A DNA stretch of 34,413 bases. Source: a virus (lineage: Duplodnaviria; Heunggongvirae; Uroviricota; Caudoviricetes). Below the pieces are notes generated by a model. That model did no database searches and was not told the origin of the DNA. It saw only the letters and a list, made by a program, of their open reading frames with translations. This document shows positions 20,093 to 23,822 of this stretch, piece by piece. The position numbers and the translations under genes were made by a program. The stretch lies in IMG/VR virus record IMGVR_UViG_2645728091_000016; one strand, 5' to 3'. Numbering within the stretch: the stretch's first letter is position 1; every line of letters starts with the position of its first letter.

Positions 20093-20690
20093 TCTGCTGC
20101 CACCGGGTTCAACACCACTGGAGCGCCGACTGGCGCAAACCTGCAGCGGGATTTCTGATCTGCAGGTGCCGCTTCGTGACTTGTGGAATCCGGCAACCTG
20201 TCCGGTCAGTTTCCTGCCTTATCTCGCCTGGGCGTTCTCTGTGGATCGCTGGGACGAGGGCTGGACAGAAAGCGTCAAGCGCCAGGTGGTGAAGGATGCT
20301 TTTTATATTCATCAGCATAAAGGGACCACCAGTGCCGTGCGGCGGGTGGTGGAGCCGTTCGGATTCCTGATCCGCATTATTGAGTGGTGGCAGACCGGAG
20401 AAACACCGGGCACGTTTCGCCTGGATATCGGCGTGCAGGACCAGGGCATCACTGAAGATACCTATCTGGAACTTGAGCGACTGATAAGCGATGCCAAACC
20501 ATGTAGCCGCCACATGATCGGCATGTCCATCAATCTGCAGACCAGCGGCCCGCATTGGGTGGGAGCCGCCAGCTATCTTGGCGAAGAAATCACGATCTAT
20601 CCGTATATCAACGAAACGATTATTTCCGGTGGCACCGCGCATGAAGGCGGGGCGGTCCATGTTATTGACACAATGAGAGTGAATCCATGA
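20085..20690 (+). CDS. I: baseplate/tail protein (P2 gpI)
   Basis: 201 aa; synteny. Confidence 0.85.
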   Translation: MNSLLPPGSTPLERRLAQTCSGISDLQVPLRDLWNPATCPVSFLPYLAWAFSVDRWDEGWTESVKRQVVKDAFYIHQHKGTTSAVRRVVEPFGFLIRIIEWWQTGETPGTFRLDIGVQDQGITEDTYLELERLISDAKPCSRHMIGMSINLQTSGPHWVGAASYLGEEITIYPYINETIISGGTAHEGGAVHVIDTMRVNP

Positions 20691-22075
20691 GCACAAAATT
20701 TTATACCCTGCTGACGGATATTGGCGCGGCGAAACTTGCCAGCGCCGCCGCGCTCGGTGTGCCGCTAAAAATTACCCATATGGCGGTGGGCGATGGCAGT
20801 GGAGTATTGCCAACGCCGGACGCAAAGCAGACGGCACTGGTAAATGAGAAACGCCGGGCTGCGCTGAATATGCTTTATATCGACCCGCAGAACAGCAGCC
20901 AGATTATTGCCGAACAGGTGATCCCTGAAAACGAGGGCGGTTGGTGGATACGTGAAGTGGGCTTGTTTGATGAGTCTGGGGCATTGATTGCCGTGGGCAA
21001 CTGCCCGGAAAGCTATAAGCCGCAACTGGCTGAAGGTAGCGGGCGCACTCAGACCGTGCGCATGGTGCTGATTACCAGCAGCACGGACAATATCATCCTG
21101 AAAATCGACCCTGCTGTAGTGCTGGCAACCCGCAAGTATGTGGATGACAAGGCACTGGAGCTGAAGGTGTACGCGGATGATCAGATGGCAAAACATCTTG
21201 CCGCACCGGACCCGCATTCACAGTACGCGCCAAAAGCCAGCCCGACATTTACCGGAACCCCCAAAGCGCCAACGCCAGCGGCGGGGAATAATACCACGCA
21301 GGTTGCGACCACTGCGTTTGTACAGGCGGCACTGACGGCCCTTATTAATGGTGCGCCAGCCACGCTGGACACGCTGAAAGAAATAGCCGCAGCCATTAAC
21401 AATGATCCGAATTTCAGTACCACCATTAACAATGCGCTGGCACTAAAAGCACCGTTGTCGAGTCCGGCACTCACCGGAACGCCAACAGCCCCCACGGCGG
21501 CGCAGTCGATCAACAATACACAGATTGCCACTACGGCTTTTGTGAAATCGGCGATTGCAGGAATGGTGGGTTCTGCACCTGCTGCACTGGATACACTGAA
21601 CGAACTGGCGGCGGCACTGGGGAATGATCCGAACTTTGCCACGACAATGCTTAATGCGCTGGCAGGTAAACAACCGCTGGACAATACGCTTACCAATTTG
21701 AGTGGAAAGGATGTAGCTGGTCTTCTCACATACCTTGGTTTGGGAGAAGCCAGATATGTCATTCAGCGAGGAGCTAATGCCAATGGTGCATGGATACGCT
21801 GGTCAGATGGTGCAATAGAAGTCTTTGGGACGGGTGGTTCTAATAATAATGGACTGGCTAAAGTCGTTTATCCTATTGTGCTTAAGCTTTCACGTTTTAT
21901 CAGCATAGCGGAAAGAATAGGAACGGATTATGGGGGCACATCTAATAACGTTCACGTTTCAATGATCGTGGATGACCAGGTCACTAATACCGGTTTTTAT
22001 GTCCGCTGCCAGATGTACGACGGAACACCATCAACAAGTGCTTTTTCTTGGAGGGTTTATTGTGCGCCTGTTTAA
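20687..22075 (+). CDS. H: tail fibre protein (P2 gpH-type); C-terminal about 113 aa lie inside the invertible segment
   Basis: 462 aa; internal tandem repeats; ATGA overlap with I. Confidence 0.9.
   Translation: MSTKFYTLLTDIGAAKLASAAALGVPLKITHMAVGDGSGVLPTPDAKQTALVNEKRRAALNMLYIDPQNSSQIIAEQVIPENEGGWWIREVGLFDESGALIAVGNCPESYKPQLAEGSGRTQTVRMVLITSSTDNIILKIDPAVVLATRKYVDDKALELKVYADDQMAKHLAAPDPHSQYAPKASPTFTGTPKAPTPAAGNNTTQVATTAFVQAALTALINGAPATLDTLKEIAAAINNDPNFSTTINNALALKAPLSSPALTGTPTAPTAAQSINNTQIATTAFVKSAIAGMVGSAPAALDTLNELAAALGNDPNFATTMLNALAGKQPLDNTLTNLSGKDVAGLLTYLGLGEARYVIQRGANANGAWIRWSDGAIEVFGTGGSNNNGLAKVVYPIVLKLSRFISIAERIGTDYGGTSNNVHVSMIVDDQVTNTGFYVRCQMYDGTPSTSAFSWRVYCAPV
21239..21682 (+). repeat. 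tandem 2 x 222-bp (74-aa) repeat inside the tail-fibre shaft
   Basis: Two protein repeats beginning SPTFTGTPKAPT... and SPALTGTPTAPT... with shared ...TTAFV...DTL.E.AAA...DPNF.TT..NALA motifs. Confidence 0.6.
21723..21748. other. left crossover site (hix/gix-like 26-bp site TTCTCACATACCTTGGTTTGGGAGAA) inside H
   Basis: About 19/26 match to hixL as recalled; inner half plus 9 further bp (21735-21755) repeated in inverted orientation at 23168-23188. Confidence 0.6.
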
Positions 22076-22259
22076 TCCTGTTACTTTGACTGAAGTAATC
22101 CCCGGTCTTCATGACGTGACCGGGGCTGTTGAATTACCAGAAGATAACTGGTTTTTTACTGCATCTGAAATCCCTGAAGGAATGGAAATATCTGTTAACG
22201 AGAAGGGCGAACCCATTCTGATTGAGATTAAACCATCTCAGGTGGAACTGGCCAGATAA
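22062..22259 (+). CDS. small protein downstream of the expressed fibre tip; putative tail-fibre assembly chaperone
   Basis: GTG 22062 with GGAGG 6 nt upstream; 65 aa; overlaps H stop; position equals tfa/gpG/U. Confidence 0.45.
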   Translation: MRLFNPVTLTEVIPGLHDVTGAVELPEDNWFFTASEIPEGMEISVNEKGEPILIEIKPSQVELAR

Positions 22260-22494
22260 CCCCCGGCGCGGTGCTGGTATCTGCTTCCATCACCGCGGCG
22301 ATATTACCAACATCATATTCAGTCATTTCCGGTTCCGGTGGTGCTATAAACTCTCCGTCAGAATAGAACCAACCGACGCCTGCATCTATATGATCAATAT
22401 TTATAATTTCGCAATTAGAGAATAAATCACCCTCTCCATCCCAGATAATAATATTTTTCACCACGCCATGTTCAATCAGAGCAAAATTACTCAT
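22228..22494 (-). CDS. small protein paired with the alternative fibre tip; putative tail-fibre assembly chaperone
   Basis: 88 aa; ATG overlaps stop of the alternative fibre cassette (ATGA). Confidence 0.5.
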   Translation of the reverse strand: MSNFALIEHGVVKNIIIWDGEGDLFSNCEIINIDHIDAGVGWFYSDGEFIAPPEPEMTEYDVGNIAAVMEADTSTAPGVIWPVPPEMV

Positions 22495-23186
22495 CAGGCA
22501 TACTCCTCAACAATAACTATTCCCGGGGCACCGTCACCTCCCGATTGAGCCTCACTTCCAGCAGGTGCGCAGGCTCCGCCTCCGCCAGCACCAAAGCCCT
22601 CAGCTTTACCACCACCACGTCCGCTGAATGATGAAGAACTTGCACCACCTATACCGCCTGAACCTAATGGTGTATCCCCCCCGGTACCACCTGCTACAGC
22701 TTTAACAGAGATAACCATTGCTCCTGGTGTTTTTGCACTACAGCGAAATGCTCTTAGTACAGTCCCGGACGATGTCGGACTGGCACCCCATGAAATACCC
22801 TGAATATATGATGTGTTTGCAGATGCTCCCCCCGCGCCACCGCCTGTACCACCAGGTGCAGTTATCATGGAACCGAAATAAGTTGTGCCACCTTCACTAC
22901 CTGAATTTCTTCCGGCTCCCCCCCCTTTACCTGCAGCACCGATAATAACGTTGACTTCGAAATCATTATCAACCTCGAAAAATGCTTCAATAAATGCGCC
23001 GCTCAATCCAGCTCCGGCTGTTGCCTGTTGATTTTCTGTTGTTTCAGGAACCCCACCGCCGCCGCCACCGCCACCAGAGGCAATGACCCTTATCTTTTTT
23101 GTCCCTGGTGTTGGGATATATTTTCCAGAGCTTTTAAAAATATTCGTGTTTAACAAACGACCAGAGAATCTGGCTTCTCCCAAACC
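22494..23186 (-). CDS. promoterless alternative tail-fibre C-terminal cassette (Gly-rich), expressed only after inversion fuses it to the constant part of H
   Basis: Open frame on minus strand beginning at the right crossover site with GLGEARF; contains SGGGGGGGGV run and many GGxGG repeats. Confidence 0.65.
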   Translation of the reverse strand, partial: GLGEARFSGRLLNTNIFKSSGKYIPTPGTKKIRVIASGGGGGGGGVPETTENQQATAGAGLSGAFIEAFFEVDNDFEVNVIIGAAGKGGGAGRNSGSEGGTTYFGSMITAPGGTGGGAGGASANTSYIQGISWGASPTSSGTVLRAFRCSAKTPGAMVISVKAVAGGTGGDTPLGSGGIGGASSSSFSGRGGGKAEGFGAGGGGACAPAGSEAQSGGDGAPGIVIVEEYA

Positions 23187-23200
23187 AACGTTTAAGAAAA
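23175..23200. other. right crossover site (hix/gix-like, inverted relative to left site)
   Basis: TTCTCCCAAACCAACGTTTAAGAAAA; inner half is the reverse complement of the left site inner half. Confidence 0.6.
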
Positions 23201-23255
23201 TGCAGAGGTAACAGCTAACTGGCATCATCTCCGGTTTTTATTCAGGGGGATGATC

Positions 23256-23822
23256 ATGCTTATTGGCTATGTACGCGTGTCAACAAATGACCAGAACACC
23301 GATTTGCAACGTAATGCACTGAACTGCGCGGGATGTGAGCAGATTTTTGAGGACAAAATCAGTGGCACTAAGTCCGACAGACCGGGGCTGAAAAAACTAC
23401 TCAGGACACTATCGGCAGGAGACACGCTGGTTGTCTGGAAGCTGGACAGGTTGGGGCGCAGTATGCGGCATCTTGTTACGCTGATAGAAGAGTTGCGCCA
23501 GCGTGGTGTGAATTTCAGAAGCCTGACTGACAGTATTGATACCAGTACCCCAATGGGCCGTTTCTTTTTTCATGTCATGGGTGCCCTGGCTGAAATGGAA
23601 CGCGAACTGATAGTTGAACGTACCAGGGCAGGGCTGGCTGCAGCTCGTGCCAAAGGCAGAGTAGGTGGACGCCGTCCTAAGTTGACCACCGAACAGTGGG
23701 CACAGATTGGGCGTTTACTCGAGGCCGGAGAATCAATACAGCGTATTGCACTGATTTTTGATGTAGGCGTTTCTACCATTTATAGAAAATTTCCGGCAAA
23801 TAAGATCAATGAATCCCCCTGA
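23256..23822 (+). CDS. serine-recombinase DNA invertase (Hin/Gin/Cin/Pin family)
   Basis: MLIGYVRVST...DQ...LVVWKLDRLGRS catalytic-domain motifs and C-terminal HTH; ATG 23256 after GGGGGA. Confidence 0.9.
   Translation: MLIGYVRVSTNDQNTDLQRNALNCAGCEQIFEDKISGTKSDRPGLKKLLRTLSAGDTLVVWKLDRLGRSMRHLVTLIEELRQRGVNFRSLTDSIDTSTPMGRFFFHVMGALAEMERELIVERTRAGLAAARAKGRVGGRRPKLTTEQWAQIGRLLEAGESIQRIALIFDVGVSTIYRKFPANKINESP

Follow-up and report, generated by a model that had tools for sequence, protein, structure and literature searches.

The sequence at 22494-23186 on the minus strand of the window, by which we mean the whole stretch of 34,413 nucleotides analysed here, is very probably (roughly 0.85) the unexpressed second 3' cassette of a two-state invertible fibre gene in a P2-like prophage, and it encodes a fibre tip of the Gly_rich_2 type. 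The original prediction, made from the letters of the DNA, had called this sequence an alternative fibre tip. That description is borne out by the position of the cassette between inverted 26-bp sites, by the Gin-like invertase gene adjacent to it, and by other E. coli in which the cassette is fused to the fibre shaft (hereafter the ON state).

The Fibre Locus and the Invertible Segment

The window comes from a P2-like E. coli prophage and covers its tail module, in which baseplate and fibre genes are followed by those for the sheath, the tube and the tape measure. This module looks complete, and the flanks of the invertible segment match P2-family phages. In its present state the tail-fibre gene (20687-22075, plus strand), flanked by baseplate genes on its upstream side and by tail sheath and tube genes on the other, encodes 462 residues made up of a constant N-terminal shaft and a non-glycine tip, here called tip A. 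Residues 1-150 match PF12571 (Phage_tail_fib; E 2e-63), and there are further matches to the tail-fibre families phrog_327 and phrog_6202. Tip A (21749-22075, plus strand), which is the tip currently expressed, comprises about 107 residues after the shared GLGEAR. Downstream of it is a 65-residue ORF (22062-22259, plus strand; WP_001236016.1 in RefSeq) that matches phrog_5400 (E 4.7e-23) and, weakly, the tail fibre assembly family phrog_188; it is presumed to be the partner of tip A. Identity between loci is only ~92% for tip A and 98.5-99.6% for the Gly cassette.

The left 26-bp crossover site (TTCTCACATACC-TT-GGTTTGGGAGAA, 21723-21748) lies in the fibre frame, at the codons for LLTYLGLGE, and the right site (TTCTCCCAAACC-AA-CGTTTAAGAAAA) is found at 23175-23200. 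They belong to a 33-nt inverted repeat in which 21723-21755 pairs with 23168-23200, and the segment between the sites is 1.45 kb long. Adjoining this segment is the gene for a serine DNA invertase of 190 residues (23250-23822, plus strand) with PF00239 (Resolvase) and PF02796 (HTH_7) domains. It matches a PDB chain named 'DNA-invertase' (3UJ3; E 4.2e-92 over 184 residues), which we take to be Mu Gin. The core of the crossover sites, TTGGTTTGGGAGAAG, occurs in exactly two copies in the window against a chance expectation of 0.06, and differs only slightly from TTGGTTTGGGAGAAGG, the repeat that bounds the P segment of e14 (PMC12529663).

Both orientations of the segment are found in nature. The whole segment is present in 27 of 5,426 complete E. 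coli genomes and, judged by the extents of their alignments, 10 of these have the collinear arrangement of the window and the other 17 match between the crossover sites only; megablast matches to the inverted-state genomes start at 21735. E. coli UC4224 carries the ON form, in which shaft and cassette make up a 580-residue 'phage tail protein', and in UC4315, a laboratory derivative of UC4224, the segment has the orientation of the window (OFF) and the locus differs in that orientation only. The fused ON state was verified in the loci L001, L003, L004, L005 and L015, was recognised in L025, L026 and L028 from the sequence that precedes the cassette, and was read from RefSeq gene order in L022-L024. 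IMG/VR and metagenome contigs likewise include both orientations. PF12571 and PF21722 (Gly_rich_2) are both recognised in the ON product, the latter at 29.2 bits in the ON protein of L001. The locus thus has the marks of a Gin/Cin/Pin/Hin-type switch, namely an adjacent Gin-family invertase, inverted 26-bp sites and the natural occurrence of both orientations.

In the mechanism that these features suggest, a Gin/Pin-family invertase would recombine the two inverted 26-bp sites and flip the 1.45-kb segment, such that a constant shaft of ~350 codons would be joined either to tip A, as in the window, or to a glycine-rich tip of 225 residues. Because the left site lies within the fibre frame, the flip swaps YVIQRG for FSGRLL immediately after GLGEAR, and the flipped state would yield a 580-residue fibre in which LLTYLGLGEAR runs directly into FSGRLLNTN. 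No promoter-like site was found upstream of the cassette on the minus strand, and in the OFF orientation the cassette is likely to be silent.

Composition, Family and Predicted Fold of the Tip

The cassette translates to 230 residues followed by a stop codon, starting with GLGEARFSGRLL (in a longer form, GLGEARFSGRLLNTNIF) and ending in IVIVEEYA. Glycine makes up 61 of the 230 residues (26.5%), compared with 11% in the expressed tip A and 6% in the constant shaft, and the cassette is therefore rightly described as glycine-rich and unlike the expressed tip. The eight-residue polyglycine run for which it was singled out (hereafter Gly8) is equally real: within SGGGGGGGGV it occupies residues 38-45, after the beta-strand KIRVIAS, and is encoded on the minus strand at 23052-23075 (GGT GGC GGT GGC GGC GGC GGT GGG), slightly displaced from the position of about 23056-23080 first given for it. 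Thirteen glycine runs of two or more residues are present in the cassette. GGxGG motifs also occur as claimed, but with four outside Gly8 (at residues 112, 116, 166 and 177) the word 'many' was generous. A glycine run of at least eight residues arose in 0.27% of 200,000 composition-preserving shuffles of the cassette, and, since other members of the family have kept the run as well, Gly8 is not a chance feature.

To what family does this tip belong? The cassette matches PF21722 (Gly_rich_2) at 32.6 bits, above the gathering cut-off of 24.3 and over model positions 9-224 of 226, as well as the tail-fibre family phrog_6202 over the C-terminal third of the latter (E 3.6e-54). An exhaustive HMMER search returned 3,212 cluster representatives at E<=1e-3, in which the domain is nearly always C-terminal and the N-terminal parts are of widely differing lengths. 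A profile of 76 homologues matched the solved fibre protein gp24 of cyanophage Pam3 (7YPX and 7YFW; E 1.7e-16, 7YPX_A residues 66-284) and Flavobacterium RemZ (8GL8; E 1.3e-7). Pam3 was reached by this profile search only, single-sequence phmmer of the tip against the PDB giving no match. NCBIfam contained no model matching the tip, no paper on PF21722 came up in a search of the literature, and, compared as DNA, the cassette was absent from deposited phage genomes. Nor did BLAST in protein mode pick up the tip in phage and plasmid collections, a negative that is almost certainly due to low-complexity masking of the glycine-rich query and so is uninformative.

An AlphaFold2 monomer model of the cassette was obtained with a pLDDT of 93.6 and a pTM of 0.89. 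Foldseek comparison of this model with solved structures gave its best matches to the tail tip of mycobacteriophage Bxb1 (E 3e-8) and to Pam3 7YPX (E 3.2e-7, probability 1.00, TM 0.59), the latter a loose superposition with an rmsd of 6.2 A; similarity to solved structures was moderate overall, with TM values of 0.46-0.59 and rmsd of 6-9 A. Predicted viral structures yielded 247 matches (E<=1e-3; highest TM 0.85), annotated tail fibres of the phages Goslar, FoX6 and Mano among them. Structure prediction had been named as a check on the original claim, with the lack of a fibre-like fold to count against it; the fold predicted is of the fibre type.

Given homology to Pam3 gp24 across both sub-domains, the same fold and GGGGxGG central loops, the tip is an ordinary member of the known Gly_rich_2 fibre-tip family. 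Modelled on its relatives, it would consist of a TNF-like beta-sandwich and a Gly_rich_2 lattice domain; glycine-rich strands would leave the sandwich in pairs along the fibre axis and pack in the lattice through main-chain hydrogen bonds, as solved for Pam3 gp24. The tip probably forms trimers.

The Polyglycine Run

What part might Gly8 play in such a tip? In Pam3 the strands of the TNF-like sandwich extend into six loops; of these L1 and L6 lie at the centre of the lattice, hold the longest glycine stretches and carry a conserved GGGGxGG, and the variable distal tips have been proposed as receptor binders (PMC9608196). The profile alignment places Pam3 VGGGGAGG, the L1 motif, on Gly8 and Pam3 WGGGGPGG on FGAGGGGA near the C-terminus of the cassette, where GAGGGGA occupies residues 199-205. 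Gly8 would be the first, central lattice strand (loop L1) and FGAGGGGA the other central strand (L6). Across the 76 homologues, G40, G41 and G44 vary hardly or not at all. When 227 diverse homologues were aligned with MAFFT, the Gly8 site read GGGGGGGG in 56 and GGGGAGGG in 35, with a single run of nine glycines and none longer. The family consensus at this position is GGGG[GA]GGG, and 7 to ~11 small residues are tolerated there. Judged from these alignments Gly8 is a structural core element of the family, and its glycine composition and constant length may be explained by side chains that would not fit in the lattice core.

The coding DNA of the run had been described as a GC-rich, repeat-like stretch that might be prone to slippage. 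The repeat-like character is genuine but weak. Tandem Repeats Finder reports a period of 6, 3.8 copies, 88% matches and a score of 39, which falls below the usual threshold of 50, and the stretch, two copies of GGTGGC and then two of GGC, is an imperfect repeat of period 6 rather than the series of uninterrupted identical tandem units that characterises a slipped-strand tract. Gly8 is found in 31 of 31 close protein clusters and at 25 of 27 DNA loci, the other two carrying one Gly7 and one Gly10. A flank-anchored pattern search, in which the run was allowed 3-13 codons, recovered 11 IMG/VR contigs, all with a run of 24 nt, plus six metagenome contigs. One GGC has been lost from the Gly7 allele, that of E. 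coli TK3888 (L024); the Gly10 allele, from a short-read metagenome contig (L026), has gained GGTGGC and is part of a fused ON-state fibre. The comparison among homologues that had been proposed does therefore reveal some length variation, confined to 2 of 27 loci, each of which varies in frame by exactly one repeat unit. Unit slippage occurs but is rare, and the tract does not look hypervariable.

A stronger view would hold that the Gly8-coding stretch is slippage-prone and that its expansions and contractions tune the tip. The imperfect period-6 repeat, the difference of exactly one unit in both L024 and L026, the occurrence of both alleles in ON-state fibres and the tolerance of the family for 7 to ~11 small residues would all accord with it. 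The repeat is however short as well as imperfect, the run is a conserved structural strand, and its length is exactly eight nearly throughout the loci and clusters just described. Synonymous GGC/GGT swaps within the run, unaccompanied by any change in length, suggest that length is under selection. In addition, the invertase of the prophage with the Gly7 allele is a pseudogene, and that allele may reflect decay. We consider such tuning unlikely: two rare unit-length alleles lend the slippage claim some substance, but the stretch is probably not a hotspot. It is still less likely that unit slippage between Gly7, Gly8 and Gly10 lengthens or shortens the first lattice strand and its distal loop and thereby retunes receptor binding. 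If it did, slippage of the Gly run would add to the inversion switch a second, finer level at which the fibre varies.

Length changes are commoner at three homopolymers of the cassette than in the Gly8 run. These are a G8 tract in the coding strand (AAA GGG GGG GGA; 22918-22925, minus strand), a G6 tract (22828-22833) and a G7 tract (22676-22682). Single-base deletions at these tracts were seen in complete genomes (L003, L005, L022 and L023), frameshifted protein fragments in the databases (P0029, P0121, P0031, P0122, P0126 and P0127) break exactly at them, and in five loci the G8 tract is interrupted by a synonymous GGT. Such observations could be taken to mean that the G8, G7 and G6 tracts are frameshift on/off switches layered over the inversion. 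The frameshifted complete genomes are however a biased sample, having been chosen for their anomalous lengths, and the G tracts are intact in six of six metagenome contigs; the 11 IMG/VR contigs likewise showed no altered tract, one of them (L007) stopping short of the G7 tract. All four deletions in L005 lie in G runs, G3 and G4 included, as fits the pattern of long-read homopolymer error. Long-read sequencing error is the simpler explanation of these changes, and a switching role for the tracts seems very improbable.

The Downstream ORFs

The Gly cassette is followed directly by an 88-residue ORF (22228-22494, minus strand), the stop of the cassette and the start of the ORF overlapping in ATGA. 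This ORF can be aligned with the N-terminal half of a Caudo_TAP protein that comes after a Gly_rich_2 fibre in another prophage, L017 (36% identity over 64 residues, pairwise E 2e-11); the C-terminal D..TAP.I.WP motif is kept and ~45 central residues are missing. The ORF gave no Pfam match, a PDB search with it was empty, and a word-indexed search recovered five near-identical clusters only. Its AF2 model, with a pLDDT of 40.7, is unusable. The genes for the homologous fibres of L017 and L018 come right after those for the baseplate wedge, with a Caudo_TAP chaperone gene next in line in each case. The homologous fibre of L020 has the same position, but the next gene is a 62-residue ORF without a family match. 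In the window, the partner ORFs of both tips (65 and 88 residues) are unusually short and their 3' ends overlap. The resemblance to Caudo_TAP suggests that the 88-residue ORF is probably a minimal or shortened tail-fibre assembly chaperone for the Gly tip, to which it would be translationally coupled.

Probable Receptor Binding and Relation to Known Systems

In a Klebsiella phage, LPS is recognised by a fibre with homology to Pam3 gp24 and triggers DNA ejection, and host-range mutations in this fibre map in its Gly-rich domain (PMC12671077). The suggestion that the glycine-rich tip is a receptor-binding type of module is supported by homology, through the PF21722 match, the profile match to Pam3 (E 1.7e-16), the tail-structure matches and the Klebsiella fibre. 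By analogy, the tip probably binds a receptor. From the LPS data for the Klebsiella fibre, a surface glycan is the best guess for this receptor.

RefSeq annotates a 244-residue ORF at 22494-23228, and PGAP calls a separate 'glycine-rich domain-containing protein', but it is extremely unlikely that the cassette is expressed alone in this form, or serves the host (e.g., in phage blocking) rather than the virion as a tip, even though inversion of the e14 P segment makes a chimeric StfE2 that blocks T2 adsorption (PMC12529663): the 14 extra N-terminal codons read through the crossover site, ON-state genomes read from the fibre shaft into the cassette in one unbroken frame, the tail module of the prophage looks complete, and independent expression was judged unlikely given that the minus strand shows no promoter-like site ahead of the cassette.

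As the presumably silent tip of an invertible fibre gene, the cassette has likenesses to two kinds of phage system. With Pam3 gp24 it shares the C-terminal TNF-like sandwich and glycine lattice, the GGGGxGG in the first and last central loops, and a gene directly downstream of the fibre, which in Pam3 encodes the chaperone gp25 and here is the candidate 88-residue ORF. Identity between gp24 and the cassette is ~24%. However, gp24 is in itself an entire short fibre, its N-terminal part a helical bundle, whereas the cassette is a swappable, inversion-switched tip on a PF12571 shaft, and gp25 has 162 residues whereas the downstream ORF has 88 (with an AF2 model of low pLDDT, as noted above). With Mu (G/Gin), P1 (C/Cin) and e14 (P/Pin) the locus shares a Gin-like serine invertase, 26-bp inverted sites of which one lies within the fibre gene, and two convergent cassettes, each of a tip with its chaperone, the latter putative here. 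It differs from them in that one tip is a Gly_rich_2 domain and in the unusually short partner ORFs with overlapping 3' ends.

Other resemblances are more distant. The gp38 adhesin of Salmonella phage S16 and the T-even phages (6F45) gave no sequence match and was absent among the top 50 Foldseek matches listed. The resemblance of the tip to the polyglycine sandwich of gp38 is architectural only. Unlike the cassette, gp38 of S16 and T-even phages is a separate monomeric adhesin that caps gp37 and lies outside the fibre chain. The receptors ALK and LTK, whose extracellular parts also have a TNF-like sandwich and a glycine-helix lattice, rank directly after the phage structures in Foldseek, but the match is weak (E ~1e-2, TM ~0.3) and these are eukaryotic cytokine-binding receptor kinases. 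The N-terminal domain of Flavobacterium RemZ (8GL8) is matched by the profile over ~195 residues of glycine-rich domain, but RemZ is a cellular protein, unlike a phage fibre.

Implications

The cassette occurs in nature on at least two different fibre shafts, via the conserved crossover site. With 230 residues and an 88-residue partner, it is a compact and self-contained predicted receptor-binding cassette, and modules of this type are used to retarget P2-type particles or tailocins; the practical value of the result is modest. Stand-alone 'glycine-rich domain-containing protein' calls made by RefSeq at such loci would be the silent halves of invertible fibre genes. The polyglycine run itself would be neither a linker nor a mutational hotspot, but a core strand of the lattice in a widespread phage tip fold.

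Activity of the Switch and Annotation of its Silent Half

The 1.45-kb invertible segment lies in opposite orientations in Escherichia coli UC4224 (locus L001) and in UC4315 (locus L002), a strain described as a UC4224 mutant. Since parent and derivative differ in this way, the switch is active on laboratory time scales. Its crossover core, TTGGTTTGGGAGAAGCC, is found at 21735-21751 and 23172-23188, and is almost identical to the repeat TTGGTTTGGGAGAAGG of the P segment of the E. coli element e14, which is inverted by PinE, PinQ and PinR alike (PMC12529663). Resident host Pin recombinases might flip the prophage segment in trans.

In the OFF state, RefSeq presents the silent glycine-rich cassette as a separate 244-aa “glycine-rich domain-containing protein” (22494-23228, minus strand; 3348-4082 in L002). 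The initial 14 codons of this ORF run through the recombination site, so the stand-alone call is probably an artefact of annotating that orientation. Among the cassette homologs, proteins P0037 and P0042 are wrongly named “carbohydrate kinase.” Each tip is followed by an unusually short ORF, of 65 aa after the expressed tip A (22062-22259, plus strand) and 88 aa after the glycine-rich cassette (22228-22494, minus strand), and their convergent 3′ ends share a 32-nt overlap. The 88-aa product looks like a Caudo_TAP tail-fiber assembly chaperone without the central helical part.

Homopolymer Tracts in the Glycine-Rich Cassette

The original prediction held that the poly-Gly coding stretch might be prone to slippage. 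Outside that stretch, on the minus strand, the cassette carries coding G8, G6 and G7 tracts (22918-22925, 22828-22833 and 22676-22682, respectively) built from GGG glycine codons, and single-base deletions occur at these tracts in four complete E. coli genomes (L003, L005, L022, and L023). Six database proteins (P0029, P0121, P0031, P0122, P0126, and P0127) are frameshifted fragments whose break points fall exactly at these G tracts. No tract changes were seen among 17 contigs from metagenomes and IMG/VR, and at five loci a synonymous GGT interrupts the G8 tract. The deletions may be either sequencing error or real slippage.

Sharing and Distribution of the Cassette

Across L001-L016, tip A (21749-22075) is only ~92% identical between loci and has a 3-nt indel, whereas the glycine-rich cassette (22494-23174) is 98.5-99.6% identical among the same loci, so the two halves of the segment have separate histories. 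The fold itself is not limited to phages: the N-terminal domain of Flavobacterium RemZ (PDB 8GL8 chain D, residues 3-197) matches the Gly_rich_2 profile (E 1.3e-7), so cellular proteins use it too. In L007, L027, and L029 the cassette is ~98-99% identical, but its partner across the crossover site is a short fiber shaft of a different kind (e.g., L029:3560-4609), the junction reading ...KNPFGDIKSDGTVKTALENL/GLGEA.... The L029 phage has another baseplate set (xxxxx_N spike, Baseplate_J, and DUF2612) and its own invertase. With the same cassette joined to a different shaft at this site, the cassette is thus common to different myophage lineages via the conserved recombination site.
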